IMG/VR virus record: IMGVR_UViG_3300044556_000077
Coordinates: 32,001-96,000 of that record
Strand: one strand, 5' to 3'
DNA length: 64,000 nt
Origin: a virus
Taxonomy: Duplodnaviria; Caudoviricetes
Shown here: positions 3,117-36,481 of the stretch, one piece after another
Position numbering within the stretch: the stretch's first letter is position 1
Layout of the letters: each line of letters starts with the position of its first letter
Made by a program: the position numbers and the translations under genes
The notes under the pieces: model-generated
Databases searched by the model: none
What the model saw: only the letters and a program-made list of their open reading frames with translations
Told to the model about the DNA's origin: nothing

Positions 3117-4607
3117 TTGGCAAAACGAGGTAGACCGAAAGGTAGTACAACTAAAAAGAAAATGCTTACCCCAAAACAGGAGCGATTACAGCTCCAAGCA
3201 GCTAATAAGAAAACTTCTCAGGAAATGACAGCTGCTGAGTCTAGAGCAGAAGTAAGAAGACTCCGTTCTATTATTCAGGACTTGAAAGATGGTGAATATC
3301 ATCAGTGTCGTATGTGCGGTGAGTATTTAAGAAATGATAAATTTTACCTTAGTACGGAAGAGGGTATTATTACACATGTTACCCCTATTTGCAAGGAATG
3401 CGCATTAGATGTTGCTATGCGTAAGGATTTGAATGGAGAGAGACATGAACCTACTAAGGAAAGCTTAATTGAAGCTCTTCAGTATTTAAATAAGCCTTTT
3501 ATTAATGTAATATACAATGCAGCCTTGCAACAGGCTAATAATTATAATGCAACACAAAGACAAACTAACTTTGCCAAGTGCTATTTTAGAATTATGCAGA
3601 TGCAGCAGTACGCAGGACTCCAGTTTGCTGATTCAGATTTCTTCAAAGATGGTCATGGTATCTCAATGAAGGAAGATGAGACTACAGGTAAAACACTTGA
3701 AGCATCTACTAGACAGCAGTTTTTACAGGATAAAGAAGATATTATCAGGTTACTTCATTACGATCCATTCTGTAACGAAGCACTTGAAGATCAGCCTTTT
3801 CTATATTCACAGCTTGTTGGATTGCTTGATTCCAGTGAAGATGCAAATGAAGATATGATGAGAAATGCAAGCTGTATTTCTATTGTTCGTGGGTTTCTTC
3901 AGGTGTCTAAGCTAGATGATGCTATTGCTGATGCGATGGCTAACAAGACAACAGTTTCTCAGAGTGCCCCTACGATTAAGAATCTGCAGGACTCTAAACA
4001 GAAACTGCTTACTGGCATTACAAAGTTAGCAGAAGAAAACTGTATCTCTCTCGCCCATTCCCGTAATTCTGGTAAGGGTGAAAATACATGGACTGGTAAA
4101 CTCAAGAAGATTAAAGATTTGAATCTCAGAGAGGCGGAAGTTAATGGTTTCGACATGGAGACATGCCGTGGCATGAGACAAGTCATGGATATGAGTAACC
4201 AGTCTATTATGCAAGCTCTCAGATTAGATGAATCAGAGTACTCTGATATGATTGCAGATCAGAGACAGATGATTACCGATCTTGAGAGAAAGAAAGAAGA
4301 TTTTAAAGAACTTTCACGTATTCTTTTGAGAGAAAATCTTGATCTTAAGGATACGATGGAAGAACATAATTTACTTCAGGGAAAGAACTTGATTGATTTG
4401 AATGAGCTGTATTCTAGGTACGCTAACAATAACCATGCAGGAGAAGAAGTACTTGAAGATGTTATTGAGGATGAAGAAGATAATAATGAAGATACCGAAT
4501 CTGAGAATAAGATTGAATTCAGTGAGAAAAGTACCGAAACCGGGAATAATTCAAACGCCGAATTTACAGAAGATTCAGTAGAAAGTGACGGTGATACAAA
4601 TGGATAG
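3117..4607 (+). CDS. Zn-finger protein immediately upstream of terminase (possible small terminase/packaging factor)
   Basis: AT-hook-like KRGRPKG, CxxC...CxxC; overlaps the terminase start. Confidence 0.55.
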   Translation: MAKRGRPKGSTTKKKMLTPKQERLQLQAANKKTSQEMTAAESRAEVRRLRSIIQDLKDGEYHQCRMCGEYLRNDKFYLSTEEGIITHVTPICKECALDVAMRKDLNGERHEPTKESLIEALQYLNKPFINVIYNAALQQANNYNATQRQTNFAKCYFRIMQMQQYAGLQFADSDFFKDGHGISMKEDETTGKTLEASTRQQFLQDKEDIIRLLHYDPFCNEALEDQPFLYSQLVGLLDSSEDANEDMMRNASCISIVRGFLQVSKLDDAIADAMANKTTVSQSAPTIKNLQDSKQKLLTGITKLAEENCISLAHSRNSGKGENTWTGKLKKIKDLNLREAEVNGFDMETCRGMRQVMDMSNQSIMQALRLDESEYSDMIADQRQMITDLERKKEDFKELSRILLRENLDLKDTMEEHNLLQGKNLIDLNELYSRYANNNHAGEEVLEDVIEDEEDNNEDTESENKIEFSEKSTETGNNSNAEFTEDSVESDGDTNG

Positions 4608-4908
4608 TATCACAACAATGATCCAAAATAACGAGATAGATAGAAATGGCGTAATTGCAAAGGTCGAAAACGATCCTAGCAAGTTATGCATTCAGAATGA
4701 TTTAGTTTACGTGCGACCGGGAGTTTTCTCTATGTCAAAACGTAAGTTAGATTCATTAAAACACATTGCTGCTATTCAGAAGTATTATCAGTGCAACCCT
4801 GTTAGGTTTGTATCTGATTTCTTTGGAATAGAACTGCTTGACAGCCAGTCATTCATATTAACTAGAACATGGGTATGCCCTCATGTTTTACTAGTGTGCT
4901 CAAGAGGT
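4600..4908 (+). CDS. terL: terminase large subunit, exon 1
   Basis: NPVRFV..FFGIEL..Q; ends VCSRG, the first half of Walker A; joins in frame to 5887. Confidence 0.9.
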
Positions 4909-5886
4909 TGACGATTTATAAAAGCCTCACTGCCTAGTAATAGGTAGATAGAAGAAAGGAAAATCGGTGAAGGCTAAGTAATAAAATTATATGCTAATAC
5001 CGAGAATGAAACAATATTTTGTAAAAACATGGAGGGGTCATATGAACCTAAATAAATATATTAAAAATGATAGAGAATTAAAAGGTGCTATAATCGGTAG
5101 TATAATGGGTGATTTAGGAATTTGTAAGAAAGAAGGAAAAAATACAAACGCTTGGTTTACAATGACACATGGAGCAGAGCAAAAAGATTATTTAAAATTT
5201 AAATCAGATATATTAGAAATGCATCCATTGGTCAAGATGAAAATGTATAAAAGAACTACACATCTAAAAAAAACAGAACGTGATTATTTACAATTTCAAT
5301 CAACATCCAATAATAATAAATATGCTACTTATTTATATAATTTAATATATCCAAATAAAAAGAAAATTGTAAATAAGAAAATTTTAGACCAAATAACGGA
5401 TTTTGGTCTTTTTTTATGGTATTTAGATGACGGATATTTAAATATTCGCAGATATCCAGATGGAAAAATTAAAGAATACCGTATTTTCTTATACACAATG
5501 AATTTTAAATTTAATGAAGTTGTAATGATTAGAGATTGGTTTATAGAAAAATATAACATATCCCCTAACATTAACAAAAAACAAAATGGTTATATTTTAT
5601 ATTTTAATTCAAAAAAGACAAGAGATTTTATGGAAATCATAAATAAGTATTATAACTTAGTACCTTGTTTAAACAGAAAATTTCTATGTGAATATATTTA
5701 ACAAAAGTTTCATTTGTAACGCATAGTGGCTGACGAATAGAATAATGCCACCACGAGTCCTTTCCATCTGACCAAGTAATGTTGAAGATGAAAATATATG
5801 CTAGACTGAATTGGAATTGACCAATTGATGAAAATGAGGGAAACTTCCAGAGCTAAAGATAAAAAACTTTAGGTTAATAACAATCG
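4909..5886 (+). ncRNA. group I intron 1 in terL (978 nt, carries a homing endonuclease)
   Basis: Exon GAGGU pairs with IGS GCCUC (U.G); P3 gaaagga/tcctttc; P4 atcggt/accga; P7 gcata/tatgc; terminal G at 5886; splicing gives VCSRG|FGKST. Confidence 0.92.
5042..5701 (+). CDS. intron-encoded LAGLIDADG homing endonuclease (two-motif, LAGLIDADG_2-like)
   Basis: GAIIGSIMGD and LFLWYLDDG motifs; RBS GGAGGGG before ATG 5042; AT-rich; enclosed by stem aatgaaac/gtttcatt. Confidence 0.9.
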   Translation: MNLNKYIKNDRELKGAIIGSIMGDLGICKKEGKNTNAWFTMTHGAEQKDYLKFKSDILEMHPLVKMKMYKRTTHLKKTERDYLQFQSTSNNNKYATYLYNLIYPNKKKIVNKKILDQITDFGLFLWYLDDGYLNIRRYPDGKIKEYRIFLYTMNFKFNEVVMIRDWFIEKYNISPNINKKQNGYILYFNSKKTRDFMEIINKYYNLVPCLNRKFLCEYI

Positions 5887-7506
5887 TTTGGAAAATCAAC
5901 ACTAATTGATATTATGATAATGGCTAAAGGTATGCTGTTTAACAATTACTGGAGCTACATTTGTTCTGGTTCTGGTTCTCAGGCACAGCAAACATTTACT
6001 ACTCTTGAACGTATTGCTAACAATAATATTGATACAATGGTTGGCTCTACAGGAGAGATATTTAAAGCAGAAGTTGAAATTAAAAATGCAGTTGGAGATG
6101 GATTTTCTCACTCCTCTGATGGTTTTAGATATAACCTTTATAATGGTTCGTTTACACAAACTCTAAATTCTAATGTCGATAAAAAAAGAGGTTTAAGAGG
6201 TAACGTCATCTTCGATGAGAGCGGATTCCTCTCAGAAGAAATGATGCAGACTTATGGTGCATTTGCTATTGTAAACAAATCATTTAAAACTGGTAAAAAC
6301 CGTGAAGGTAAACAGCTTGACGATATCAGGCTTAAGACTATTCCAGATGAAATCTCTAACCAACAATTTTATATTTCATCTGCATCTTCCACGGATACGG
6401 AGTTTTATCGTTTGTATAGAGATTATGCAAAGCGAATGATTATGGGTGATCCAGACTACTTTGTAGCGCAGTTCGATTGTGAAGCTTGCTTCTCCCCTAC
6501 TGTGCATGGTAAGAAAATTGCTCCGCTGCTTGAGAAATCAACGGTTGAATCTGCTATGCGTACAAATCCTGAAAAAGCAAGAAGAGAATACTATTGTCAA
6601 TTTACATCTGACGGTGGTAACAACGCTATTGTTCGCAGAGGAGTTATTGCTCGTAATGAAGAAGTAAGAAAACCTATTTTATATAACGATACTGGTAAAC
6701 GTAAGATTGTAATGGCTTACGACCCTGCTAGATCACGAGACAACTCGGTTATTCTTATCGGTGAAATCTATGACGATGGAAAAGATGGAAAGCATGATAA
6801 GAAATTGAGACTGCTTAATTGTGTTACTCTTGCAGATATTGGTAAGAAGAATCATACACCTATGCAGACTCCAGATCAGATTAAATATTTAAAACAACTG
6901 ATTCTGGATTATAACATGGGTGGAGATGATAAATACAGTAACATTGAAGGTATTTACATTGATGCAGGAGCTGGTGGATCAGGAGTTAATATTGCAGACT
7001 ATCTGATGGCAGATTGGGAAGATGAGAAAGGTGAAACACACAGAGGATTGATCGATAAAGAATACTCCGCTGATTATGTTCGCAAGTTCCCTAATGCTGT
7101 TGATAAAGTACATCTGATTCCCCCATCAAAGTTTAAATCTATTATCTATGAAGCAACAATTGAAATGCTGAATCAGGATAAAATCAGTTTTACTGCTACG
7201 TATGACAACAAAGGTTATCTTACTCTCATTAATACAAATGAAAAAATTCTCAATAGAGAAAAGAAGAAAATACTAAAGGATCTTGAGAAAGAGAATATTC
7301 CAGAAGATGAAAAACAGGATGAATTAAACAGGCGTTTACTTCAGGTATCCTGCGTTGAAACTAAGATGGAAAAACTTTCTTGGCAAGAGGAATTAGCATT
7401 GGAAAATATAGATGCTCTGAAAGAAGAGCTTGTTAATATGGTCAGAATCAAGCGAGAGAATAGAGATTCGTTTGAGTTATGTGCTGAGAAAAGGAATAAA
7501 CTGCAT
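5887..7506 (+). CDS. terL: terminase large subunit, exon 2
   Basis: FGKST, RGLRGNVIFDES (Walker B), YISSA, AYDPARSRD, IDAG nuclease motifs. Confidence 0.92.
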
Positions 7507-7719
7507 AAACATCGTTGTGCAGATGTGGCATAATCCATAAACCACATTAGGAAATTTAATCTGATTGACTTGGAACGCCAGAGGTGGCAGACAGGGCGCA
7601 AGCGTAATGGCAGCGTGAACGACTGAGTGATTAAATCTCATAGGATATTACATGAGAATGCGACAGTCTGAACTTCCGATATAACCTAACATTTATAGAA
7701 GTCGGAGATAACAAAAGCG
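7507..7719 (+). ncRNA. group I intron 2 in terL (213 nt, no ORF)
   Basis: P1 CUGCAU/GUGCAG; P3 atttaatc/gattaaat; P7 gactg/cagtc; ends in G; splicing gives KLH|DDRSYTLA. Confidence 0.9.
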
Positions 7720-7881
7720 GACGACAGATCGTACACTCTAGCTCTTTTAGGCTATTCTTTAGATCAAGCACGTAAACAAGACTATCTTAACTCACATAAA
7801 CGAGAAAAACAAACGTCTGGATTAGCAAAGTTATTTGCTTCTCAGGCAAAGAAAGCAACGAGGAAAACTGGCATATTCTAG
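7720..7881 (+). CDS. terL: terminase large subunit, exon 3 (spliced protein ~696 aa)
   Basis: DDRSYTLALLGYSLDQARK...GIF*; supplies the final catalytic aspartates. Confidence 0.88.
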   Translation, partial: DDRSYTLALLGYSLDQARKQDYLNSHKREKQTSGLAKLFASQAKKATRKTGIF

Positions 7882-7923
7882 TCTTCCTTTATCTAGGGAT
7901 TAATTTTAGAAAGGAGGTTTTGT

Positions 7924-9711
7924 ATGCCAGAAGTCTCAAACAATAATACTCAGAATAAGCGTAGACGGTCTAATTCAAAATATAAAAAGAAGAAGACTCA
8001 ATCATACAGCAAAGGTTCGAAGTTTCGTTCTAAGCAGAATAAAAATGCTAAAAATAACATTAAGAAACCTGATTTTGAGTTGCCGAAGCAGAATTTTAAC
8101 AAGACTATTGTTGAAAGCGAAAAAGAGATCAAGCAGAAAGAAAAAGATGAAAAGCGTCAACTCTCTGTTACCCAGTTGAGAAATTGGTATCAGAAGAATT
8201 CTAAAGAAATCGAGCGTTTCAAGAATGCCGAAGCACTTAAGCAACTTGGTATTCCTTCTAAGGAAAGAACTGCTTCTGCTACTACGTTTAGTAAGACAAA
8301 GCTGAGAACATATCTGAAGAACCCTATCAGAAACTATAAGAATCTTAGGAATCTAAGCAGATACTTAAGATATCGTTCTCAAGCTTATAGAAGATTAATC
8401 ACATACAATGCTTCAATGATTAATCTGAATTACAGAAGCGTAATCCCTCTTGTAGATATTAATAAGATGGATCGCTCTACTAATAAAAAGAAGACAATTA
8501 AGAGTTATTACAATACTCTTGAATGTCTTGAAGTAATGAATCTCCCTTTGGAGTTTTACAAGGTTTATATCACCTGTTGGACGGAAGATGTATTCTTTGG
8601 ATGTGCCTACTTTGATAAGGCGAACAATGAATTCTTTATTCTGCCATTAGACCCAGATTATTGTAAAACTATTGGTATCTACCCTACTGGTGACTTGGCA
8701 TTTGATATGGACATGTCCTACTTCGATTCAAGACAGGATATTCTTGAACTTTGGGGTGAGCCGTTTCAATCGATGTATAAAGAGTATCAGAAAGATACAG
8801 TAAATAATAAGTGGGTACAAATGCCAGATCAGTATTGTGTATGTTTGAAGCAAAATATTGATGACTGGGAAACTCCTATTCCACCTTACATTGCATTATT
8901 CAACTCTCTGATTAATTTAGAGGATCTTGTTGATATCACGGCAATTGCAGATGAACAGCAGATTTATAAAATGATTGTTGCTCAGATGGATACAATTACC
9001 GGATCTGCGGAAAGAGATGATTTTACTGTAGACCCTTATACAGCGATTGAGTATTTTAACAGATTGAAAGATCAGCTCCCTGATTATACAGAAGCTGTGC
9101 TCTCACCTCTCAAGCTTGATACGATCTCATTCGACAATGACCAGACTACAGATGTTAATAAGGTAGAGAATGCTACTAAGGCAGTATTTAATACATCTGG
9201 TGGCGCACAAGTTTTGAACTCTTCTACTATTAGTGGAACAACAGCTTGGAATGGTGCTATCAGATCGGATGAAGAATTTGCTTTGTCTTCTCTCCTTCCA
9301 CAGACAGAATCATGGATTAACAGGTTCTTGGCTTGTTATATTTCTAATCCTTCTAAGGTTAAGTTCTTGGAAACAACAAGATACACAGTGAATGACTTTA
9401 AGACATCTCTCCTGAAGGATGCAACTTATGGTCTTCCAAACAAGCTGATTATCAATTCTCTGAATGGATTGTCAGAGCTTGAAACAATCAGTCTGAATTA
9501 TCTTGAGGAAGACTGCCTTGGACTGAGTAGTAAATTCGTTCCACTTCAGAGCAGTAATACAATGAACACTGGCAACTTAAGTAACGATCCTGATTCCAAT
9601 AAGAAGACAGACCCTACTGCCAGTGATGGTTCTGAGGGAGCACCTAGTAAGGATGATACAGCATTAACAGATGAAGGTGAAGCTTCTAGAGACAAGAGAG
9701 ATCAAAGCTAG
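7924..9711 (+). CDS. portal protein
   Basis: Follows terL, 595 aa, LR.LSRYL...S..YRRLI.Y motif, AAGGAGG RBS. Confidence 0.8.
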   Translation: MPEVSNNNTQNKRRRSNSKYKKKKTQSYSKGSKFRSKQNKNAKNNIKKPDFELPKQNFNKTIVESEKEIKQKEKDEKRQLSVTQLRNWYQKNSKEIERFKNAEALKQLGIPSKERTASATTFSKTKLRTYLKNPIRNYKNLRNLSRYLRYRSQAYRRLITYNASMINLNYRSVIPLVDINKMDRSTNKKKTIKSYYNTLECLEVMNLPLEFYKVYITCWTEDVFFGCAYFDKANNEFFILPLDPDYCKTIGIYPTGDLAFDMDMSYFDSRQDILELWGEPFQSMYKEYQKDTVNNKWVQMPDQYCVCLKQNIDDWETPIPPYIALFNSLINLEDLVDITAIADEQQIYKMIVAQMDTITGSAERDDFTVDPYTAIEYFNRLKDQLPDYTEAVLSPLKLDTISFDNDQTTDVNKVENATKAVFNTSGGAQVLNSSTISGTTAWNGAIRSDEEFALSSLLPQTESWINRFLACYISNPSKVKFLETTRYTVNDFKTSLLKDATYGLPNKLIINSLNGLSELETISLNYLEEDCLGLSSKFVPLQSSNTMNTGNLSNDPDSNKKTDPTASDGSEGAPSKDDTALTDEGEASRDKRDQS

Positions 9712-9725
9712 AAAGAAGGATTCAG

Positions 9726-9947
9726 ATGGATACGAAGTTAGATAAGCGTGACAGTAATTTCATTATTGCTGCCAATGAATATACGTTAGAACGACTGTTG
9801 AAAGCGGGTTCTTGTTTGGTATCAAAGTTCAATTCTGGGAACACTGAGTATTATGTACTGACTAATACATGTTCAGCATTTGATATGGATACGTTTTCTC
9901 AGGATGAGAAGATGAACTTTGCCTACTCTAACAAGGCTTTCTTTTAA
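9726..9947 (+). CDS. small hypothetical head-module protein
   Basis: 73 aa ORF between portal and protease. Confidence 0.55.
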   Translation: MDTKLDKRDSNFIIAANEYTLERLLKAGSCLVSKFNSGNTEYYVLTNTCSAFDMDTFSQDEKMNFAYSNKAFF

Positions 9948-9964
9948 GTAAGGAGTTTTTTATT

Positions 9965-11692
9965 ATGGCAAAAATTAAGAAGTTATTGACTTTTGACGAT
10001 TTAGTCAACTTCTGTGAAACAAGCCATTTGAAATCTTTCTCATTTAAGGATTCTGGTTATAGATTGGCATTGCAAGTTCCTTCTACTTTTGAAATTGATA
10101 ATTCTAGTAATCGTGATGGACTGTTAGACATCAAAGTAAAAGTAATGCATATTGGGAAAAATAGAAATCAATCTTACATTTCCGAAGATGCAGTGAAGAA
10201 AGCAATGTCATCTATCAAGAATCGTCCTGTATTGGGATATATTCATCAGTTAGATGATGGCAGTTATGATTTTTATGGTCATAACATTGAGATTGTTGAA
10301 AATGAAGACGGTGATAACGAGGTTGAATACCTTGAGTATCCTGTTGGAAATTTCACAGAAGATGAGCCAACTTTAGAGTATGATCCAGAGCATGATAAAA
10401 CCTATCTGGTTGCTCATGCTGTTATTTATGAGGAGTACTCTAAGGCAGCCGATATTATTAGAGAAAAACAAGGCACTAAGAATTCCTGTGAGATCATCAT
10501 TAATTCTTTTGCTTATAATGCGAAAGAAAGATGTGTTGAAATTCAGGACTTTTATTTTAGTGGATCTACATTGCTCGGATCAGATGATGCAGGAAACGAA
10601 ATCCTTGAAGGGATGGAAGGCTCAAGAGCAGACATTGTAGATTTTAGTGAACAGAATAACAGTATGTTTGCTCATAAACCAATTGATAATCCTGCATCTG
10701 AGAATGAAAGAAAGGAGGACGATAGAGTGTTAGAGGAACTTTTAAAAAAGTACGGCAAGACTGTAGAAGATCTTACTTTCGATTATTCTGAGTTATCTGA
10801 CGAAGAGCTTAAGAAAAAGTTTGAAGACGAATTCGACATTGATATTGATGATGATGACGATGACGTAGATGATGACTCCGATGACGATGATGAAGAAATC
10901 GAGGAGACTACAGAAACGACTATCGAAGAAGAAGACGATGACGATGATGATGACGATTCTGACGAAGATGAGGATGAGGATGAGGATGACGAAGACGATG
11001 ATCTTGACAATCCTGATGATGAGTTCTCCAAGAATGAAGAGCCAAAGGCAGAGCCAGATTCTTCCGAGAAGAAGTGTGGTGGCGGTAGAAAGAGAGATGT
11101 ATACGAAGTTCGCATGGACGAAATTTGGGGCATCATTTATCAGCTGACTGAGCAGTATCGTAATCCAGTTGATAATGCTGACGAGTATTGCATTCCAACT
11201 GAAGTCTATGAGACATATTTCATTATGTGCGACTACAACAGTGACAGACATTACAAGGTATCCTACTCTGTTGATGGTGACAATGTAACTATTGGTGAAA
11301 ACAGAGTTGAGGTATTCCCTGAGTGGCTGACTGCTGATCAGAAGACTGCACTCGATACACTTCAGAGTCGTTTTGAAGAAGTATCTACGGATCTTCAGAA
11401 ATATAAAGATGCTGAAGATAAGGCTAACAAGGAGGCTGTACTCGCTGACGAGGCTTATGAACAATTTGCTGATACAGAAGAGTTTAAGACGCTTCATGAG
11501 AAGATGGATGAGTTTACTCTTGATGAGCTTAAAGAAAAGGCAGAACTTGCTTTTGCTAAGTGCGTAAAAGAAGCAGGATCTTTTTCTGCTCATAAGAAAG
11601 AACCACAGAAGACGAGTACGAGATATGCTTTCTTGAATCCAAACAACACGGTTGAACATAAGAATCCTTATGGCAATCTGTTTGAGGAATAG
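9965..11692 (+). CDS. prohead protease-scaffold fusion
   Basis: H.GKNRN.S.I and G..NSCEI protease motifs; acidic and coiled-coil C-terminal half. Confidence 0.8.
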   Translation: MAKIKKLLTFDDLVNFCETSHLKSFSFKDSGYRLALQVPSTFEIDNSSNRDGLLDIKVKVMHIGKNRNQSYISEDAVKKAMSSIKNRPVLGYIHQLDDGSYDFYGHNIEIVENEDGDNEVEYLEYPVGNFTEDEPTLEYDPEHDKTYLVAHAVIYEEYSKAADIIREKQGTKNSCEIIINSFAYNAKERCVEIQDFYFSGSTLLGSDDAGNEILEGMEGSRADIVDFSEQNNSMFAHKPIDNPASENERKEDDRVLEELLKKYGKTVEDLTFDYSELSDEELKKKFEDEFDIDIDDDDDDVDDDSDDDDEEIEETTETTIEEEDDDDDDDDSDEDEDEDEDDEDDDLDNPDDEFSKNEEPKAEPDSSEKKCGGGRKRDVYEVRMDEIWGIIYQLTEQYRNPVDNADEYCIPTEVYETYFIMCDYNSDRHYKVSYSVDGDNVTIGENRVEVFPEWLTADQKTALDTLQSRFEEVSTDLQKYKDAEDKANKEAVLADEAYEQFADTEEFKTLHEKMDEFTLDELKEKAELAFAKCVKEAGSFSAHKKEPQKTSTRYAFLNPNNTVEHKNPYGNLFEE

Positions 11693-11738
11693 AAATTTAC
11701 ACAATATTAAGATAAATAATTTAAAGGAGGAAATGTAA

Positions 11739-12209
11739 ATGGCTACAAATTTTCTGAATTTTACAAAGCATGCAATCGCTGGTAGTTCCAGATTGAAGGC
11801 TACGACTGCTGGCCATATTTATGACATCGTTGCAGATAAGAACTATGATAACGGCACTCTGATTACCAAGGGTGACTATGTAGAGAACCAGACATACAAG
11901 GCTGGTGCTGCTGCAACAGCATTTGAGGGAAAGATCATTGATATTGCTGCTAATGGCAACTATTATGTTGAGGTTGTTACTCCGGGAGATGCTCTGCTGA
12001 TCCTGACTTCCCCGCTGATCTATGAGGATTATACATCTCAGATGACAGCTGAGTCTAACTTCTTCAACGCAAAGGGAGACATTATGAGAGCTTATGAGCT
12101 GTACAAGGGTGATGTTTTCGAGCTGTCTGCTGAAGGTTTCGAAGGAGCTGTTAAGAAGGGTGACAAGGTTAAGGTTACAACTACTCTTCTGAAGCAGGCT
12201 AATGCGTAA
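11739..12209 (+). CDS. head decoration/cement protein
   Basis: 156 aa between scaffold and capsid; strong RBS; high-expression codon usage. Confidence 0.65.
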   Translation: MATNFLNFTKHAIAGSSRLKATTAGHIYDIVADKNYDNGTLITKGDYVENQTYKAGAAATAFEGKIIDIAANGNYYVEVVTPGDALLILTSPLIYEDYTSQMTAESNFFNAKGDIMRAYELYKGDVFELSAEGFEGAVKKGDKVKVTTTLLKQANA

Positions 12210-12240
12210 TTAATTGATTAAGTGAGAGGAGGTTTATAAT

Positions 12241-12707
12241 ATGCCTATTATGAGATTTAGTAATCCGAATACAAATGCCGTAATCGAAGACTATGGCTTT
12301 GAAGATACAAAGAGACTGATGTTTGATGCTGGTGTTAATTCCCTGAAGGGTGTTTCTCCGAAAAAAGCTGATGGAAAGATCAGAGAGATTTTCCAGAACA
12401 TTTTGGGTGTTAGTGAGAATTCTTCTGCTAAAGAGCTGAGAAATGCTATCAGAAGAAATGCTATTTCTGTATATGAAGTAATCGAAGAGGTTGTTCCGCA
12501 GCTGATGAGAGTTGGTTGGGCTGAGAATCCGTTCTTCGATGCTTTTGTTGAGTATAGAAATGGTGCACTGGGTGACACTAACGAGTTCTATGTAGAGGAT
12601 GACACAATCCTGTCTGTAGCAAAGCTGTCTGGTGGACACCATGATATTATTCGTCAGAGACTCGGTGAAGGAAGTTCGTTCTCTGTTAAGACTAACTGGT
12701 ACGGGGT
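12241..12707 (+). CDS. major capsid protein, exon 1
   Basis: Synteny; YEVIEE, F..FVEYRN..LGD..EF, G.HD..RQRL; ends mid-codon GT. Confidence 0.85.
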
Positions 12708-13101
12708 TAGATATTAGCTCCCAAGCATCGTGAGGTGCTTCGTAATATATAAATGCATTGAACTGCTGGAATTTCTTAAAGCTGATTACACTAAAACGTA
12801 AGTATGAAATAAGACTAGGCGTGAATGCCACGAAAGTAGAAAAAAGTAATCAGATGGTGCAAGGTTAAACCCTAAACACTGAATAATATACATAATATTA
12901 TTACAATAGAGAATCAGCATCCAAGTTCCGAATAGGAAAAGGATCAACGACTATCCCCTTGTGGGAGTAGAATTGCAAGCGATTGGTAATTCGAAGTGGT
13001 GCGCTCATTCAATGAGAATGAGAAAGATATAGTCTAATCTTTAGTGAAAGCTAAAGGGCTTAATGCCAACACAGAGTAGCGTCTGTAGTTAAATACAAAT
13101 G
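12708..13101 (+). ncRNA. group I intron in major capsid gene (394 nt, no ORF)
   Basis: P1 GGGGU/GCUCC; P4 tgctg/cagca; canonical P7 aacgacta/agatatagtc; terminal G; splicing gives WYG-GT|A-KIYTEFELFMAGRIDW. Confidence 0.92.
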
Positions 13102-13723
13102 AAAGATCTACACAGAGTTTGAGCTGTTCATGGCAGGAAGAATTGATTGGGCTTCTTTTGTTCAGAAGATTTATGATGCTTATGACAGAATGATGAATGA
13201 TATGCTGTACAAGGCTACTATTGATGCAGCTGCAGCTGTTACCCCGGCATCCACATTCACAGCAACAGGTAAACTTGATACAACTACAGTTGATCATCTG
13301 ATCGAGGTTGTTGAGAACGTTGAGATGGCTACACAGGAACAGGCAACAATCGTAGGAACGAAGGTTGCTCTGTCCAAGCTGAGTAAGATCGTACCAGCTG
13401 AGTGGATTTCCAACGAGATGAAGCAGGAAAGACATCAGACAGGTGCTCTGGGACTTTGGGAAGGAATTCCTCTGCTTGAGATTAAGCAAGGATTTAAAGA
13501 CAGAACTTATACAACTAAGGTTGCAAAGGATGACGTTCTGCTCATTATTCCGTCTGGGGACAACAAGTTCATCAAGGTATTTGATGAGGGTGATGCTCAG
13601 ATTTATCAGGTTCAGGATTCTGCAACGAACATGGATATGACCATGACTTATGAGTATCAGCAGAAGATGGGTATTGCTACTGTTATGAATACTAAGATTG
13701 GTAGCTACACCATCACAGCTTAA
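13102..13723 (+). CDS. major capsid protein, exon 2 (spliced protein ~362 aa)
   Basis: Frame is open upstream of the ATG at 13130 back to the intron terminal G. Confidence 0.85.
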
Positions 13724-13753
13724 TTAGTAGCTATATAATTAAAATACTTGAAA

Positions 13754-13794
13754 TAAATAGAGTAAGGGCATTTTACTGCCCCTACTCTATTTTA
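13754..13794 (+). terminator. terminator after capsid gene
   Basis: aatagagtaagggca-tttt-ac-tgcccctactctatttt. Confidence 0.65.
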
Positions 13795-13819
13795 ATACAT
13801 GAAGAAAAGGAGTTTATTA

Positions 13820-14491
13820 ATGGCAACAGTTGGAAATAAGAAAACAACTAAGGCTACGTCCACAAAGGCTGCTACTGTCAAGAAGACAGCTACAACAGCC
13901 AAGGCTAAGACAACTCCAGTTAAAAAGGTAGAAAAGGTTGAAGAAAAAGAGCCTACTATCTCTGCAAAGGATGTGACTTCTGCGGTTGCATCTGGTGTTG
14001 CAGCTGGTGTCGAGGCAGCTATGGAGAAAACGCACAAACAGAGTAATGACAGTGATCTTATTACTTGTTGTTCTGTTACATTTGGTAAGCTGATTGTCTC
14101 TGGAAAGTCATTTGATGATGTATATATTTTCTACAACTATGGAGATACATGCGAAATCTCTGTTAAGGATTTAAAGACCCTCAGATCGACTCGTTCCAGA
14201 TTCTTGTTCGATCCAATGTTTATGATTGAAGATGAAGAGTTTCTTGAACAGCCTGAGTGGAGCAGATTAAAGAAACTTTATGATGAGCTGACTTATAAGG
14301 ATGCTGTTGAAATCCTGAATCTGCCTAATGACAGATTTGAAAAGGCACTTGGTAATCTGCCTGATGGATTTATTAAGGCTATCCAGTCTGCTATTTCTAC
14401 AGGACTGACTGATGGAACATTCGATTCAATTAATAAGGTGCGTATTTTTGACAGAGTTTGTGGAACTGACCTGAAATGCTTAATTGGTTAA
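13820..14491 (+). CDS. virion-associated hypothetical protein, Lys/Ala/Thr-rich N-terminus
   Basis: AAGGAG RBS before ATG 13820; follows capsid gene. Confidence 0.6.
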   Translation: MATVGNKKTTKATSTKAATVKKTATTAKAKTTPVKKVEKVEEKEPTISAKDVTSAVASGVAAGVEAAMEKTHKQSNDSDLITCCSVTFGKLIVSGKSFDDVYIFYNYGDTCEISVKDLKTLRSTRSRFLFDPMFMIEDEEFLEQPEWSRLKKLYDELTYKDAVEILNLPNDRFEKALGNLPDGFIKAIQSAISTGLTDGTFDSINKVRIFDRVCGTDLKCLIG

Positions 14492-14503
14492 AGGAGGTTT
14501 CAT

Positions 14504-14944
14504 ATGACAAAATACACACAGATTTTTAATGTATTCTTGTCTAAGATTGAAGACTCAGACCTCCCACAGCTTTCAGAAAATGATCAGATGCTCGAACTAA
14601 ACACATGGCTTGATTCGGCTCTTGGTGAAATGGAAATCGAGGGTGTCAAGATTATGCATGACATTCACGACAGAGATTCCGTAAAAGGCATTTTTAATAA
14701 CACACTGTCCGTTGGTGAAATTGAAGTCATTGCTAGGTATATGGTCATTGCATGGTATGATCGCAAGATCAATTCGTTAGAACATATTCTTCTCTTTGTT
14801 GGTACGAAGGAAGAAAAATTTACAAACCAGAAAGACCACTTAGCAGCGTTGAAAAACGCAAGACAAGGCTATAGACAGGAAGTTAGACGGATGATCGCAG
14901 AGTATGGTTTTAAAAATAACACCTATCTGCAGGAGGAAAAGTAA
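14504..14944 (+). CDS. head-tail adaptor (putative)
   Basis: Synteny, size, MT.Y..IF..FL.KI.D start. Confidence 0.6.
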   Translation: MTKYTQIFNVFLSKIEDSDLPQLSENDQMLELNTWLDSALGEMEIEGVKIMHDIHDRDSVKGIFNNTLSVGEIEVIARYMVIAWYDRKINSLEHILLFVGTKEEKFTNQKDHLAALKNARQGYRQEVRRMIAEYGFKNNTYLQEEK

Positions 14945-14946
14945 AA

Positions 14947-15270
14947 ATGCAATATAAATATGGAGAATACACGCAAGAGCAAGTTCACGATTATAAGAAG
15001 AAACTGCACAGCCTTGTGCATTGGCTTCTTATTTATAAAGAACAGAAGAGCAACAATTTAGATAATTATTTTAACATTGTACAGAGTAAGCTTGATGGTT
15101 ATGACGAATTAGTCAACCACCCTGATGTAATGGTTGAGATTATGAATCTTGTAGAGTCTGCCAGACTTGAGAGCAAGAAAGAAGATTACTCTCATAAATT
15201 ATATCGAAGCTTAATTTTAGATACACACGATCTTATTGATAAGTTACCAGAAGTAGATCAGGCTGAATAA
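14947..15270 (+). CDS. hypothetical neck-module protein
   Basis: 107 aa, coupled to neighbours. Confidence 0.55.
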   Translation: MQYKYGEYTQEQVHDYKKKLHSLVHWLLIYKEQKSNNLDNYFNIVQSKLDGYDELVNHPDVMVEIMNLVESARLESKKEDYSHKLYRSLILDTHDLIDKLPEVDQAE

Positions 15271-15285
15271 TGGTGGTGATATATT

Positions 15286-16506: not shown

Positions 16507-16508
16507 TC

Positions 16509-17144
16509 ATGGAGTTCAAGGAGAAAACATGTGATGTAGTCCTGTCCCCTACTATGGATGCGTATGTAAAGAATTCTTCTTCATTACATCCTGAAGGGAA
16601 TTTTGACGAGATCACTAACATTAAATACAAAATTATGAAAATGCTTACCAGCGATGGTGATATTTTAAGAACACTGCACAACACTGAATTAGAGAAGTAT
16701 GTACCTACTTTGTATGATCCTAAATATATGAACGATCCAAAGTTAGATAAACAGCATAATGGTGATGTATATATTGATACTAATGTATTCAATTTTTTAC
16801 GTATTCCAGATATTGCGAGTGATGTAAAAACATATATTGGATTTGAAGTAGATGATGTTGAAATTCCTGATTTCAATACAAGCAGAATGACTAGAAACAT
16901 TACATTTAGGACAGTTTCTTATAAAGAAGAAAGCAAGACTAAATACGGAATCAGAAGACAGGATTTGCTTGCTTTACTGATCCGCAATAAATTTAACTGG
17001 ACTAATAAGTTTGGTCTTTCTGTTCATACAATTTGTAACGAAGGTAAACTTCTGGAGAGTGGCTATTACTACAGAGATATTATTCTGAACATGACAGCAA
17101 CGAATGATACTTATGATAGTATCAATAATAGTGGAGTTGTTTAA
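16509..17144 (+). CDS. tail terminator/completion protein (putative)
   Basis: R.DLLA.LI...FNW motif; upstream of tail tube gene. Confidence 0.55.
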   Translation: MEFKEKTCDVVLSPTMDAYVKNSSSLHPEGNFDEITNIKYKIMKMLTSDGDILRTLHNTELEKYVPTLYDPKYMNDPKLDKQHNGDVYIDTNVFNFLRIPDIASDVKTYIGFEVDDVEIPDFNTSRMTRNITFRTVSYKEESKTKYGIRRQDLLALLIRNKFNWTNKFGLSVHTICNEGKLLESGYYYRDIILNMTATNDTYDSINNSGVV

Positions 17145-19889: not shown

Positions 19890-19909
19890 ACTTAACTATT
19901 TACATTAGT

Positions 19910-20557
19910 TTGAAACTTAGAACAACTGAAGTGATTTATGAATGGAGTGATTGTTTGATACTAGATTTAGACAGACCAGTATTACACCTGACATCCCCTA
20001 TCCCAAGGACGGTAAATCATTATATGGGGATCAGAGTGGTTAAAAAAGGAAATAAAAGTATTCCAATGACGTATGTTACGCCAGAAGCTAAAAAGTACAA
20101 GTTGGAATTCATTCATTATATAAGAAAAGAAGTTAAGAAACAAGGTTGGGATAAGGTAAATAATAAGTATCGTCATCTATATATGGATGGCGTTTTTTAT
20201 ATGCCTAAAACCAATATGGACGCTGCTAACTGTGACAAAATCCTCTCAGATGCTATTACTGAATCAGGGGTAGTTTGGGATGATGATAGCGGTATTTTGT
20301 TCAGACCACAGAGAATTTATTATGATACGCAGAATCCTAGAATTGAATTAACAATTCATCCTGTTGAGTATTATGGGATCTTTGAGTCTAAGGAATCTGC
20401 TGAAAAGTTTGAACATAACTGTAGAAAATGCAAGAGATATATGCGTAATTGCAGTCTGCTTAGAAAAGCATTTGAATGCAGAATCTGTGAAGAAATCGAT
20501 ATGAATGGCGATGAGCCAGTATGTGAAAAGTTTAATCCAAAGGATAGTAAGGAGTAG
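19910..20557 (+). CDS. rusA: RusA-family Holliday junction resolvase (start may be slightly downstream)
   Basis: P.TVNHY, D.AN..K.L.DAI, V..DD, NPRIEL motifs; C-terminal Cys cluster. Confidence 0.85.
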   Translation: MKLRTTEVIYEWSDCLILDLDRPVLHLTSPIPRTVNHYMGIRVVKKGNKSIPMTYVTPEAKKYKLEFIHYIRKEVKKQGWDKVNNKYRHLYMDGVFYMPKTNMDAANCDKILSDAITESGVVWDDDSGILFRPQRIYYDTQNPRIELTIHPVEYYGIFESKESAEKFEHNCRKCKRYMRNCSLLRKAFECRICEEIDMNGDEPVCEKFNPKDSKE

Positions 20558-20562
20558 TAATT

Positions 20563-33100: not shown

Positions 33101-36100
33101 AATGGCAAGTATGTAACTAAGACAGTAAAAGTTATTAAAGGTCAAACCAAAAAAGTTAAAGTACCAAAGAAGAAGAATGGCAAGATTGTCAGAGATAAGA
33201 AAGGCAAAATTGTATATACCACAAAGAACGTACCTGTATACGAATACAAAATGGTTCCAAAGAGGTACAAGTCTGGTAAGAAGAAAGGTAAAGTTGTCAA
33301 GAAGAATGGCAAGACTGTCTACACAGTAAAGAAAGTACAGAAAAAAGTACCTGTATATACATATAAAGGTGGTGTTACCTATAAGAAAGGTAAAACCAAA
33401 GTTAGACTTGACAAGAAATGGCAACAGCTTGTAATTAACGGAGCTATCAAATCTATCTCTAAGAGTGGAAAGATTAAATACATTAAAGGAGATAAGATTC
33501 AATCTGTTAAAGATGAAAATCTTGCAAAAGCTATTCAGGACTTCCAAGATTACTATGATAAATATCGTGAAGCAAAAGAGAAAGCGGAAGAGCTTAAAGT
33601 ACAAAAGCTCGATGCGTTTAAACAAAAATTCGATAATGTAGTTTCTGATTATCAGAACAGACAAAGTATTATTGAACATAAAGCTACTATGGCTTCTAAA
33701 CAGAATGATATTCTTCAAACCAGAGGAAGAATGATGACAGCAGCAAATTATACTGCTATTAAAGAAGCTAATGAAGCAAAGCTTGCATCTGAAGTTGAAG
33801 AACAAAAGAAACTTCAAAAGAAGATGCACGACTATCTTAAGAATGGTGGCAAGAAGAATTCTCAAGCATGGCAGGAAATGACCATCTCAATGAATGAGAA
33901 TCTTGAAGCACAGCTTGACACCAAGAATGAGATTGCGCAAGCAAGCAAAAATATTCTTGAGGCTCAATGGAAGAACTTCGATAAACTACAGGAGTTATAT
34001 AATGTAATTCCGAATGAGATGCAGTTCCTTGTAGATAATCTCACTAAAGATGGATTATATTATGAGTTAGATCATTACTATGATTCTGATATTGCTCAAG
34101 GAAGAAATGTGTCTGAGCAGATGCATGAGTATGCTAATATTGGTAAGTTAAATAACAATGGTATCGCTGCCGGAGGATTAAGACTTGCTAAGTATGAAGC
34201 TTATATTGCACAGGCAAAGAGTTATCAGAAAGAAGTTGAAAAGCTTAAAGAAGAAATTGCTGCAGATCCGTATGATCTCGACATCAGAGCGCAGTATAAT
34301 ACATATCTTGAAGCTTATCAATCAGCAGTCAATAGTGCTAATGAAGAAAAAGAAGCAATCAAGAGCTTAATTTCTGATGGATATCAGAAGCAATTAGATG
34401 CTATCAATAAGATTATTAGTGCTCGTAAAGAATCTCTCCAAGCAGAAAAGGATCTGTATGACTATGAACAGTCTATGCAGGATAAGCAGAAGAGCATTAA
34501 TAGCTATAAGAAGCAGTTACTTGCACTTCAGGGAGATAACTCAGAAGAGGCTCAAGCGCGAAGACAGATTATCCAAAAGAATCTTGACGATGCCAAGAAA
34601 GATATGAAAAGTACTCAGATGGATAGACTCGTATCCGATCAAGGTGCTATGCTTGACCAGCTTTATACCAGACTTCAAGAGCTTACTGAAAAGATTTCTA
34701 ATGATACTGATCGCTCTATTGAAGAACTTAAAACTCAAGTGAGAGGTGGAGCTTCTACTATTAAAGATACAATTAGTTCTGAGACAGAAAAATGGGGATA
34801 TAAAGTATCTGATGACACACAAAAGATCATCGATCAACTTAGTGTATCTGGTAATATTTCTGATACTATTGGAACAATTAAAGAAAACCAGACTGGAATT
34901 GAAGGTACACTTGAGCAGATTCTTCAAACTCTTATGGATTACATTGAAGCTAAAGGAGACAAACAATATACTGGATGGGAAGAACTTAAGTCAAAGCTGT
35001 ATGATAAAAATGGAAATCTTCTTAAGAGATATTCTACGGACAAGCATGGATATAAAGATATTACTAAAGAGATTGAGAAGCTTGAACAACTTATTAAAGA
35101 AAAAGGTTGGACAGCTAAAGAAACTCAAGAACAATATGCTACAGTACAAAAGCTTGTTGGTGAGGATGATAGTAATTATAACTCTCGTGTTAAAGCAAGA
35201 CAGCGTACAAACAAGCATCTTAGTGACCTGAAGAAGACAGAAGATTCTATTAAAAAGAAGATTAGTTCTGCTAATGATAAACTTGGAGAGCTTAAGAAAG
35301 AAAGAAGGCATGCTAAGACATCTTCTGAAAAGAAGAAACTCGATAAAGAAATTGCAGCTGAACGTAAGAAGAGAGATAAGTATAAAGAGCAATATGAGAA
35401 AGCTAAGAATGAGTATAATAAGCTGAATAATCTTATGAAACAAGGGGGAGAGCCAGCAATGGACTACATTGATGATGTTCAGGCTGGTAAAACCAAGTGG
35501 CAAAAGGCTGATATCAAGCGTGGAGAAAAAGCTGTAGACACTCACCTGAAGAATCTCAGAAAAGATAAGAAAGCTGACCAAAAGGTTCTTAAGAAGCAAG
35601 AAAACGATCTTGTTAATATCAATAAACTTATTAGTAAATCACATGGTGATGCCAAGAAGAACCTGCAAAAGCAGAGAACCGAGATCACTAAGAACATTCA
35701 GGACTTACAGAAGTCTATTGACTCCAAAACTGTAGAGATTAACAATATTGTTAATATGCAGATGGAAGGTGGACAAGGCTGGATGGATTATGTTCAGGAC
35801 GCTGCTGATGGTAAACAAAAGTGGCAGACAAATCCTACTGGATCTGATAAGAAGACATCTTCCAGCTCTTCTAATAAATCTTCCTCTTCCTCTTGGAAAG
35901 CTCCATCAGTGCTTAAAGGATTTGACCACGGTAAAACTAACAAGAAATATAAAAACGCTACAACAGCGCACGATATGCTTAGATATCGTGGATATGATGT
36001 AAGTGGTAGTGACAGTGACTTCAAGGCAATCTTTAAAAAGATTTTCGGTCGTACATGGAAAGGTACTGCAAAAGATACTAAGGATTATAGAAATTGGTTA

Positions 36101-36481
36101 AAGAAACACGGTTTCGCTCAAGGTGGAACTATCGGTGATCTCATTAAGGGAACTGGTGAAGATGGATTTGTACTTGCCAGAACAGGAGAAGAAGTCCTCT
36201 CTATTCCTAAACTGAAGCTTGCCGATGAAATGGTTTCTAAGTTAATCAATGCCAGTGTTGCCACACCTCATGTTGCAACAAATACAAATACAACAACACC
36301 TGTTGGTAATATAACATTCACTATTGAAGAAATGAATCTTCCGAATGTTAAGGATAGTAAGGACTTTGCCAATAATCTTATTGGTGTCCTCAAAGATGAT
36401 ACTAGGATTCAAAAGGCTATCCGTTCTGTATCTATTGATATGGTTGGCGGTGGAAATACCTTCGGTGTAAGGCGTTTCTAG
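27158..36481 (+). CDS. tape measure protein, exon 2 (spliced protein ~4600 aa)
   Basis: Second half of TMP core (TRQDGSEIGNAMKTILTRI); three A.GG...GE.. motifs; frame open from 27158. Confidence 0.88.
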   Translation, partial: KGIQIMTDAVQKAGAVAKDSGMSYEQLMAITASVSARTRQDGSEIGNAMKTILTRIGKASKLSASGEVDNATLSDASKALNNVGIDVYKPNGQFRNINTILGELSQRWGSLTDAQKRQISFAIAATRQTNVLSAILETYSQSTKLATEATNAHGNAMKNNEKWMDSSAGKIQSVKTNLSDFWIHFYNSNVIKGVLNLTKGFTTLFSTISHIPGIGGGLSGGLLAAFGINRFLRGKQAFQNFKNLRTKEGAGWTSAVFQSLFGLHNYTDKSEYKNSMLRNDVNRFQKIWDGVNKTLFSGDLIASLKNKFSKAKEQFALGREGAAAGYKNADEFLNARYTARTKDYIRNGVRLGDVYDKLSQEEIKAARLKEGNASDAANLALNAGMLAGNLKTGFKETVLPNLIKFIKNPVGIGAIAAAVTYGALRIATYAAHSINRKYDGAAKKIKEYERDEDKAQLNVDKLKAQRARHGTLNAADQSTLEMYQARVKFAKQQQKVQKQIQASNVEGSFKVKTKGSGMTWDDKAAFNGIAGVGGSTGLAGITEAYSQVEKYLREYKAKNSKLGFTDFMKRSSAQMEALMKFRDKVRQYDKQGLRVSSQDKQLANQIDTLANSWNKVAIAQSKASSGMAKYNNTINSVTKKMSSWQDYINSAPAVLDSMNKVIKGANDNGASLKSFQDTIKTVLTNSADTKQGTDQFWTAAETMFTKKQLIRNGYDYTKTRAMMQQEQKFAAKSASGAYSFLQYLNQNKSAIGKATAKSKGGQVTITQDSSGIHVSGLNTKNIGAVGNAIGYSKDLMNLFEDNLQRYAPMALTYTKQALDKVAPKIAGSMENTVWKGSNKKADKKWLKANGSSKNPYADTTDLYTDSLQWYKKGGQRSLVRKTFKGFNFKELADNVSKASNKYNAKNLIGYSKSRYGATNKTAPVFSDAKAKSMELNIAQLAREGKAKGLTKSETIQAIRSLKQGTKAATGKDVGYYGKTKENGKTVTDSNLSAKEMKSIVKKAYGDPDSNKKSKVNISAKSVYVNGKKVKDPKDDDSKHPKKHPDKDTKDTKDTKKHQDKNGTKGSGSGSGGKGGGHGSRGSSSSGGGRSSSSGSGGGHGGSSSRGSHTSSSSSSHGSHSSSSSNGNGRGSKKNIISKSALQNSLNGTSTSHANVGKGINWDKVGKSIESANKKVNKWFKTGDTSNGGTKGKHILNPLAPIDKHPEVHYKGNKVIPNYKGATNQDPISKVLGKTSKNVKNSLADSFASSDLWRKSTIIANSDAFTGLGKLPSGGGLFPHSNKTKTAKSIKNSLADSFASSFLWRQSTIAKNALSTLPSRGKNALSTLPSRGKNALSALSNSGKNLLGTLFPAWKSSAFKADRGENLFSRLAKGANIAFRGGKSVLGKIGSGIANETSLFEAMKAGTASSKQIKQGWLHQLASKGKGLLGKGKDWLLDGFSMSAVYGATKKGSSKSSKDNKSKVKVDADTKSLSSALRKVKAKIKSLGKGKAGKIKIKADTKGVESPLKKLKSTLNKFKKTKKIKVSANVTGKKKITSLKSALKSIKSKKAHIKVTGGESASKQARSVKSALKKIPASKKTKVSAPGATQSAKQINAHVSAAKKIPPSKKTKVSAPGASKAASDLKSVANASKNIKTNIQINVTVSKHKKAHGGLVTNDELTTTGELGKELVRTPEGHFYTVGNKGREDVPLSKGSYVFTAAQTSKILRGKSYITKNNQLTTDKTKGISPTLTNIYDAKASGGEAKAGYSLVGEEGAELIKSGDRAYLVGKNGAELTYLNKGDYVYTADETKRIMNGRSTKTDILNDIMSRAGGTSGDKLKDGGYYTVKVVRSAAHPIGTGDQGMSAADVKKANAKKASSKSNKKSSKKSSKKSSKRSSKKSSKKSSKKSGKKSSSKKSKDSEPTKFDWIERAVAKIEHVLNIIDKHVESIHRTWGDREKSLDHQIKTLNEELNLQKKAAKWYKAKAVGTKKQKTKKVRVKKNGKYVTKTVKVIKGQTKKVKVPKKKNGKIVRDKKGKIVYTTKNVPVYEYKMVPKRYKSGKKKGKVVKKNGKTVYTVKKVQKKVPVYTYKGGVTYKKGKTKVRLDKKWQQLVINGAIKSISKSGKIKYIKGDKIQSVKDENLAKAIQDFQDYYDKYREAKEKAEELKVQKLDAFKQKFDNVVSDYQNRQSIIEHKATMASKQNDILQTRGRMMTAANYTAIKEANEAKLASEVEEQKKLQKKMHDYLKNGGKKNSQAWQEMTISMNENLEAQLDTKNEIAQASKNILEAQWKNFDKLQELYNVIPNEMQFLVDNLTKDGLYYELDHYYDSDIAQGRNVSEQMHEYANIGKLNNNGIAAGGLRLAKYEAYIAQAKSYQKEVEKLKEEIAADPYDLDIRAQYNTYLEAYQSAVNSANEEKEAIKSLISDGYQKQLDAINKIISARKESLQAEKDLYDYEQSMQDKQKSINSYKKQLLALQGDNSEEAQARRQIIQKNLDDAKKDMKSTQMDRLVSDQGAMLDQLYTRLQELTEKISNDTDRSIEELKTQVRGGASTIKDTISSETEKWGYKVSDDTQKIIDQLSVSGNISDTIGTIKENQTGIEGTLEQILQTLMDYIEAKGDKQYTGWEELKSKLYDKNGNLLKRYSTDKHGYKDITKEIEKLEQLIKEKGWTAKETQEQYATVQKLVGEDDSNYNSRVKARQRTNKHLSDLKKTEDSIKKKISSANDKLGELKKERRHAKTSSEKKKLDKEIAAERKKRDKYKEQYEKAKNEYNKLNNLMKQGGEPAMDYIDDVQAGKTKWQKADIKRGEKAVDTHLKNLRKDKKADQKVLKKQENDLVNINKLISKSHGDAKKNLQKQRTEITKNIQDLQKSIDSKTVEINNIVNMQMEGGQGWMDYVQDAADGKQKWQTNPTGSDKKTSSSSSNKSSSSSWKAPSVLKGFDHGKTNKKYKNATTAHDMLRYRGYDVSGSDSDFKAIFKKIFGRTWKGTAKDTKDYRNWLKKHGFAQGGTIGDLIKGTGEDGFVLARTGEEVLSIPKLKLADEMVSKLINASVATPHVATNTNTTTPVGNITFTIEEMNLPNVKDSKDFANNLIGVLKDDTRIQKAIRSVSIDMVGGGNTFGVRRF
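31084..31170 (+). repeat. 33-bp tandem repeat (~2.6 copies; KNALSTLPSRG)
   Basis: taaaaatgcattatctacattacctagtcgtgg at 31084 and 31117, partial at 31150. Confidence 0.9.

Follow-up and report, generated by a model that had tools for sequence, protein, structure and literature searches.

Virion genes split by introns are a well-documented habit among phages of Gram-positive bacteria. The locus described here, in which four putative group I introns interrupt the terminase large subunit gene (terL, twice), the major capsid protein (MCP) gene and the tape measure protein (TMP) gene of the virus record IMGVR_UViG_3300044556_000077 (IMG/VR), is therefore no new kind of system. The stretch analysed, referred to as the window, has a length of 64,000 nt and corresponds to bases 32001-96000 of this linear record of 132,182 bp, the completeness of which has been estimated at 72%. 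In prophages of the Bacillus cereus group, group I introns are found in the genes for the TMP (IVS1-3), the large terminase (term-IVS1/2) and the tail tube (Tourasse and Kolsto 2008, PMC2504315). The same genes are thus struck there as in the window, and TMP and terL introns coexist in one prophage. A terL intron of these prophages is homologous to a TMP intron except in P1, as holds for the first terL intron and the TMP intron here, and most of the introns are devoid of an open reading frame (ORF) and have stop codons at or near the intron start (PMC2504315). The window phage differs in its lineage, in its insertion sites, in having an added capsid intron and in the C that precedes its TMP splice site.

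Comparable insertions are known from other phage groups. Cluster J mycobacteriophages contain an intron in the capsid gene and a related one, without an ORF, in a tail gene; their splicing was shown by reverse transcription PCR and N-terminal sequencing (Pope et al. 2013, PMC3706429). As in the present case, the introns occur in only some closely related genomes; by contrast, these phages have high-GC actinobacterial hosts, carry the endonuclease antisense in the capsid intron and have no terL introns. A capsid intron in Lactococcus phage Tuc2009 is cited in the same work. The terminase gene of Bacillus phage Moonbeam contains two group I introns, and that of Lactobacillus phage LL-H, cited there, contains one (PMC4299906). 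Moonbeam resembles the window phage in having a terL gene interrupted by self-splicing introns, but both of its introns carry endonucleases whereas the second terL intron of the window appears to be a minimal ribozyme of 213 nt. The jumbo gut (Jug) phages average about 18.5 group I introns in each genome; their terL, nrdD and DNA polymerase genes are split, and metatranscriptomes confirmed the splicing (PMC12880540). They share with the present record the richness in introns, a terL gene in two to three pieces, the split nrdD and polymerase genes and the small size (about 200 nt) of introns. Their genomes, however, measure 360-400 kb and their hosts are Bacteroides, while the present record holds at least eight introns in 132 kb. 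Set against these systems, the four insertions in the window are very probably selfish mobile group I introns of three lineages, which have invaded conserved motifs of three essential late genes and are removed by self-splicing.

Four precise insertions in three late genes

All four insertions are precise, and their removal restores a reading frame that is conserved in intronless relatives and in a near-identical phage, the sibling (record G005, contig L012; 34.5 kb), whose exons are 96-99% identical to those of the window (Table 1). An earlier reading of the DNA, made from the letters alone and called the sequence-only reading below, had placed the interruptions of terL (twice), MCP and TMP at these positions or within a few bases of them. 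For terL, six viral contigs were recovered with exon 2, of which five show 61-64% identity and the sixth is the sibling. The homologue of exon 1 abuts that of exon 2 in all five relatives at 61-64% identity, tblastn shows exon 3 abutting exon 2 in L011 and L009, and both junctions are read through as one frame in L007, L010 and L011. At the first junction intact TerLs read ...TRG followed by WGKST..., and at the second ...L(N/H) followed by DDRAY..., the corresponding residues of the window being CSRG and FGKST, and NKLH and DDRSY. This means that intron 1 cuts the Walker A loop and intron 2 the conserved acidic nuclease motif. Because searches of TerL against Pfam, NCBIfam and PDB sequences gave nothing, its identity rests on the PHROG match, the motifs, the gene position and an ESM Atlas terminase cluster (0.99). 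As a separate observation, the TerL homologue at L009:3271-3429 has an in-frame stop about 33 codons past Walker A, though tblastn aligns through it; a sequencing error, recoding or a further insertion could account for the stop.

The capsid gene of the sibling is uninterrupted and encodes 362 aa. Pfam, NCBIfam and PDB sequence searches with the MCP gave nothing, and a single-sequence AlphaFold2 model was useless (pLDDT, the model's confidence score, of 36). This was solved by supplying an alignment of 25 sequences, with which the intact MCP of the sibling was modelled at pLDDT 75.6 and Foldseek returned HK97-type capsids as top matches (probability 1.0). As modelled, the product of the capsid gene is an HK97-fold major capsid protein, and the intron is inserted in its invariant WYGVKIY stretch.

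In the tape measure gene, which is an uninterrupted open frame of more than 3513 aa in the sibling, positions 96-196 of the PF10145 profile match residues 6-120 of exon 2. The match lies at the start of this exon, which indicates that the intron cuts a conserved TMP domain, the PhageMin_Tail core. The only ambiguity of the intron boundary is a 3-nt AAA repeat, and it is settled as in Table 1 when a terminal G is required. The spliced tape measure would have 4603 aa, very long even among SPbeta/949-type siphophages; it matches known TMP profiles only around the intron and in one later stretch.

Table 1. Features of the window discussed in the text (positions in the window)
Feature	Position	Strand	Remarks
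terL exon 1 (108 aa)	4585-4908	+	ends ...CSRG within Walker A loop; tblastn to intronless relatives stops at residue 108
terL intron 1	4909-5886 (978 nt)	+	predicted group I, class A (IA-like)
LAGLIDADG_2 homing endonuclease ORF (236 aa)	4991-5701	+	Pfam PF03161, 1.7e-28
terL exon 2 (540 aa)	5887-7506	+	begins FGKST, ends ...NKLH; phrog_2 TerL at 4.5e-17
terL intron 2	7507-7719 (213 nt)	+	predicted group I, compact, class B
terL exon 3 (53 aa + stop)	7720-7881	+	begins DDRSY, nuclease acidic motif
MCP exon 1	12241-12707	+	phase-2 junction after GT; phrog_4088; colinear with uninterrupted sibling gene
MCP intron	12708-13101 (394 nt)	+	predicted group I, no ORF; boundaries unambiguous by BLASTN against sibling
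MCP exon 2	13102-13723	+	100% aa identity to sibling
Tape measure exon 1 (1496 aa)	22311-26798	+	continuous with exon 2 in sibling
TMP intron	26799-27157 (359 nt)	+	predicted group I, class A, no ORF; exactly absent from sibling
Tape measure exon 2 (3107 aa)	27158-36481	+	PF10145, phrog_4211
Portal	within the 3-43 kb block	+	phrog_2739
Tyrosine integrase	43998-45224	-	adjoins tRNA gene 45540-45612 (-), where strand bias switches
IStron-like element, complete	57339-59360	-	ribozyme 59027-59360 (RF00028, 49.9 bits), then TnpA and TnpB
TnpB/OrfB_IS605	57339-58436	-	in IStron
IS200-type TnpA	58438-58857	-	in IStron

Predicted ribozyme cores and intron lineages

By their predicted cores, all four insertions are group I introns, and they belong to three lineages. 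In P1, a U.G pair stands at the cleavage site of three of the four introns: U4908.G4924 in terL intron 1 (exon 4904-4908 paired with 4924-4928), U7506.G7517 in terL intron 2 (7501-7506 with 7517-7522) and U12707.G12717 in the MCP intron (12703-12707 with 12717-12721). Each of the four ends in the terminal omega-G (G5886, G7719, G13101 and G27157). P7 can be drawn between 5721-5725 and 5797-5801 in terL intron 1, where the helices were read from the sequence, between 12949-12953 and 13030-13034 in the MCP intron and between 26927-26931 and 27058-27062 in the TMP intron. The compact terL intron 2 has P3 at 7555-7561/7629-7635, P7 at 7621-7625/7664-7668 and P8 at 7637-7641/7652-7656. The core helices P3-P9 follow in canonical order, as judged by covariation for the lineages termed class A (terL intron 1 and the TMP intron) and class B (terL intron 2), and by a full-length structure alignment to the Rfam model RF00028 for the MCP intron.

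Relatives were gathered for the covariation analysis because Rfam is silent on three of the introns. For class A, a conserved 14-mer led to about 25 viral contigs with real similarity, of which 11 members were folded with RNAalifold; for class B, a gapped pattern over P7 was used, 37 distinct sequences were kept and 30 of them were aligned. Both scans give many chance matches, for which reason the loci were filtered by blastn or a second motif. The class A fold comprises P2, P3, P4, P5, P6, a hairpin between P7 and P3', P8, P9, a GAAA-capped P9.1 and P9.2, with compensatory changes in 43 of the 61 predicted pairs; the hairpin we take to be P7.1, an IA-type feature. The invariant segments GCAUA and UAUGC pair as P7 across P3, which is the pseudoknot of group I introns. 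In class B, 90% of the cells over all tested pairs form standard pairs (38-50% when the partners are slid), the helices P3, P4, P5, P6 and P8 are each 93-100% paired, and there are 129 double-change cells compared with 39 in shuffles, none of 500 shuffles reaching the observed score. MAFFT misaligned the variable P9 of class B (42% paired) and misplaced the P3' strand of the TMP intron in the class A alignment.

The division into three types (terL1/TMP, MCP/IStron and terL2), which would imply separate invasions, had already been proposed in the sequence-only reading and is borne out by these comparisons. The terL1 and TMP introns are 70% identical over about 100 nt and match the same class A profile, the former in its 3' half (E 6e-40) and the latter with E 6e-47 and a fold z-score of -5.1. 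Over 228 nt, the MCP intron and the ribozyme of the IStron-like element are 72% identical, the match lying at window 59100-59305 (-), and within the genome this ribozyme is the nearest relative of the intron. Intron 2 of terL has no other class B intron beside it in the genome.

Other kinds of element were considered for the insertions and rejected. An intein or programmed bypass does not agree with the in-frame stops (for an intein, a stop 0-11 codons in), the sizes and the ribozyme cores, and group II introns do not agree with the sizes and the lack of any Rfam match to them. Nor is the MCP intron itself an IStron, as it has 394 nt, no ORF and no TnpA/TnpB module 3' of the ribozyme, so that only the ribozyme is common to the two. 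The IStron-like element adjoins a dUTPase-like ORF.

Possible homing traces in the sibling phage and other relatives

The sibling carries both terL introns and is devoid of the MCP and TMP introns, and BLASTN shows this absence to be exact, with base-precise boundaries. Neither terL intron is present in the relatives at 61-64% identity. The spliced MCP differs from that of the sibling by 34 nt and 3 aa, terL exon 2 by 72 nt and 4 aa, and a 3.1-kb stretch of TMP by 29 nt and 9 aa. As change is mostly synonymous and the genes are colinear, the exons are under purifying selection as joined frames.

Window and sibling have terL intron 2 at 99.5% identity, but differ in the content of terL intron 1. 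The sibling version of the latter (L012:2706-4000, 1295 nt) agrees with that of the window at both ends, where the first 10 nt and the last 98 nt are common to the two, and its core is 79% identical. Its ORF encodes a 326-aa protein with LAGLIDADG_3 and helix-turn-helix domains and lies near P1/P2, whereas the LAGLIDADG_2 ORF of the window starts in L5 and has its body in the P6 loop. The latter scores 100.1 bits against a cut-off of 25 and covers profile positions 3-168 of 168. On this comparison, the different ORFs are an endonuclease replacement at a single site.

The LAGLIDADG_2 ORF is the only homing endonuclease gene in the whole 132-kb record, in which profile searches for HNH, HNH_3, GIY-YIG and LAGLIDADG_3 gave zero matches. 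This agrees with the single endonuclease that had been noted for the region, and the three short introns were likewise rightly described as free of ORFs, none of them having a sense-strand open stretch of more than 40 codons. The suggestion that they are mobilised in trans by endonucleases encoded elsewhere in the genome is not supported within the 132 kb, which contain no candidate beyond LAGLIDADG_2.

Endonucleases are instead found with the relatives of these introns in other phages. The terL Walker A loop is the site of ten of the 16 distinct class A introns, and the TerLs concerned belong to no fewer than two divergent families. Three others share the TMP site, at which the relatives L134 and L030 have GIY-YIG ORFs in L5. 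Class B introns occur at the same terL site, between the codons for H and DDR, in L226 and 10 nt downstream of it in L232, where a GIY-YIG ORF follows P9. At the MCP site, relatives with 52%-identical capsid genes (L254:1741-3000 and L255-L257) contain a homologous intron, with 73.5% identity in L254, and the L254-type intron has a 260-aa GIY-YIG ORF 3' of the ribozyme core. Capsid genes split in this way account for many of the 193-aa 'proteins' in the public capsid cluster, which represent their exon 2. For each ORF-less intron, other phages thus have a relative with a putative endonuclease, inserted at that site or an adjacent one, and this makes mobilisation during co-infection plausible.

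A trace of such an event may be visible around the MCP site, where 15 of the 60 differences between window and sibling are concentrated in 260 nt (about 130 nt to either side, a span picked post hoc after the data had been seen) of an alignment of 3106 nt. Clustered single nucleotide polymorphisms of this kind would be expected from co-conversion as the intron homed or was lost; no comparable cluster is found at the TMP site.

Among cultured phages, the MCP-type intron matches 89 records, mainly from phages of Staphylococcus, Lactococcus, Enterocloster, Bacillus and Clostridium, and the record of Clostridium phage D-1873 annotates its match as a group I intron. Class A matches are found in Clostridium and Staphylococcus phages and class B matches in two records. 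When cultured phages were searched with 10 kb of the window (megablast) and with TerL exon 2 (tblastn), one 58-nt intron-core match and zero protein matches were obtained. As a side observation, class A introns are also present in at least two other conserved genes (L045, L052 and L035), with 3' exons that begin [DE]YQ[LI]ERLHIYGDEHP and DQSVYDALVNMAQFF.

Persistence of the introns and the phage that carries them

If the insertions are selfish introns, as is very probable, they have settled in the terL Walker A loop, the DDR motif of the terL nuclease, the WYGVKIY stretch of the MCP and the tape measure's PhageMin_Tail core, and the late transcripts would have to be spliced by the ribozymes of the introns themselves. 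Exogenous guanosine would attack the splice site in P1 and the exons would then be ligated after omega-G, giving a TerL of 701 aa, an MCP of 362 aa and a TMP of 4603 aa. The introns would persist via a cycle of gain and loss of homing endonucleases, with terL intron 1 representing the endonuclease-carrying stage and the other three being ORF-less survivors, which may spread, if at all, by recombination or through cognate endonucleases from co-infecting relatives. The sequence-only reading had stated that no virion forms without four splicing events. This remains a fair conclusion, because each intron carries in-frame stops and splits an essential motif.

Several points weigh against this explanation. 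None of the four introns reaches the 50-bit gathering threshold of RF00028: the MCP intron scores 44.5 bits (E 3e-10) over the full-length model, and terL1, terL2 and TMP have zero matches at E<=10, even when short excerpts are used. The MCP-site homologue in L254 scores 62.4 bits, above the cut-off, and the class A and B introns in L126, L155, L226 and L153 are also without a match at E<=0.1. As other members of these classes are missed too, the misses reflect the reach of the model. P7 is invariant in classes A and B, so covariation neither supports nor rejects this helix. In the TMP intron, which is a predicted ribozyme, exon CGG at 26795-26797 pairs with 26811-26813 in P1 and C26798 faces A26810, so that the 5' exon ends in C opposite A and departs from the canonical U.G. 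According to the intronless allele, the last base of this exon can only be C or A, and it is C if the intron ends in G; two TMP-site relatives likewise end the 5' exon in C. Finally, the splicing of the four introns, the efficiency of this splicing and the lack of a regulatory role are inferred, and the neutrality of the introns is assumed.

An unlikely alternative is that the introns serve as weapon and armour in competition between phages, in which the terL intron endonuclease would cut the intronless terL of co-infecting relatives while the ORF-less introns would shield the sites that they occupy. An allele that already contains the intron is immune to the cognate endonuclease, and in mixed infections the enzymes encoded by introns can give flanking markers an advantage. 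The threat exists, as introns with endonuclease genes are found in relatives at the very same MCP, TMP and terL sites, and two different endonucleases compete for one terL position in phages that are almost identical. It is plausible that occupied sites are protected from rival homing endonucleases, one of the possibilities raised in the sequence-only reading. The sibling nevertheless persists with empty MCP and TMP sites, and the same pattern would be expected from purely selfish dynamics. It is similarly doubtful, and quite unlikely, that the ORF-less introns are kept by selection at sites cut by the GIY-YIG or LAGLIDADG enzymes of co-infecting phages, with the TMP ribozyme working with C.A. 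If true, the late-gene module would be an arena of phage-versus-phage interference.

It is very improbable that the introns act as a regulatory checkpoint by which virion production would come to depend on GTP, Mg2+ or temperature through the four splicing events. All four do lie in essential late genes, and by logic poorer splicing would lower the burst size. However, the introns do not occur together as a conserved set, only two of the four being present in the sibling and none in the relatives at 61-64% identity. The absence of the MCP and TMP introns from the sibling shows that the set is not a fixed, co-adapted unit and that two of the four are dispensable for this type of phage. In addition, the introns come from three unrelated lineages, which are also found in other genes and other phages. 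The stop codons near the 5' splice sites, to which attention had been drawn earlier, are present after 0, 8, 2 and 11 full intron codons (in terL intron 1, TGA is the first intron codon), but they are no special feature: at 35% GC the probability that all four stops fall within 12 codons by chance is about 0.12, and a designed feature is therefore rejected. A defective phage or an assembly artefact with genes that are broken and never rejoined is hardly credible, even for a metagenome assembly estimated to be incomplete, given four independent base-precise insertions with intact ribozyme cores and omega-G, exons without frameshift under strong purifying selection, and the recurrence of both terL introns in an independently assembled sibling.

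The introns reside in a head-and-tail module that forms a plus-strand block at 3-43 kb of the window and encodes TerL, the portal, the capsid protein, the giant tape measure and tail proteins. PF27364 (listed as YonB) is the source-precomputed Pfam label of the capsid protein family, and PF27290 (YonD_N) that of the adjoining gene. Relatives of this family in cultured phages are found in the Lactococcus 949 group (about 125 kb) and in Bacillus, Enterococcus and Clostridioides phages, and one relative is an NCBI Clostridium sp. protein. The integrase and the tRNA gene at the switch of strand bias suggest a temperate lifestyle. Together, the family labels, the cultured relatives, the Clostridium protein and the integrase lead us to read the record as probably that of a large gut-type, temperate, SPbeta/949-like siphophage of Bacillota, and the host is probably clostridial. 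A RusA-like resolvase homologue (window 19910-20557, +; phrog_34 at 2.6e-27) lies in the middle of the tail-gene block. Outside the window, RF00028 also matches at positions 20117-20347 (+), 97304-97578 (-) and 98681-98916 (-) of the genome; the first of these introns splits an anaerobic ribonucleotide reductase (nrdD-like) gene, and the other two split a gene for a PHP-domain DNA polymerase III alpha-like protein twice. With these further matches, the record holds at least eight group I introns in its 132 kb.

The window phage and its near-identical sibling provide a clean natural example of the homing cycle: two entire introns are present in one and absent from the other, a third holds a different endonuclease in each, and the pair would allow direct tests of homing, exclusion and fitness cost. 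Useful by-products are the intron-plus/minus pair itself, the endonuclease swap, the TMP splice site ending in C and the two classes that are invisible to Rfam. Since the standard Rfam model overlooks these two group I intron classes, which are abundant in phages, metagenomic phages will have their split terL, capsid and tape-measure genes mis-annotated as fragments unless the junctions are compared with intact relatives.

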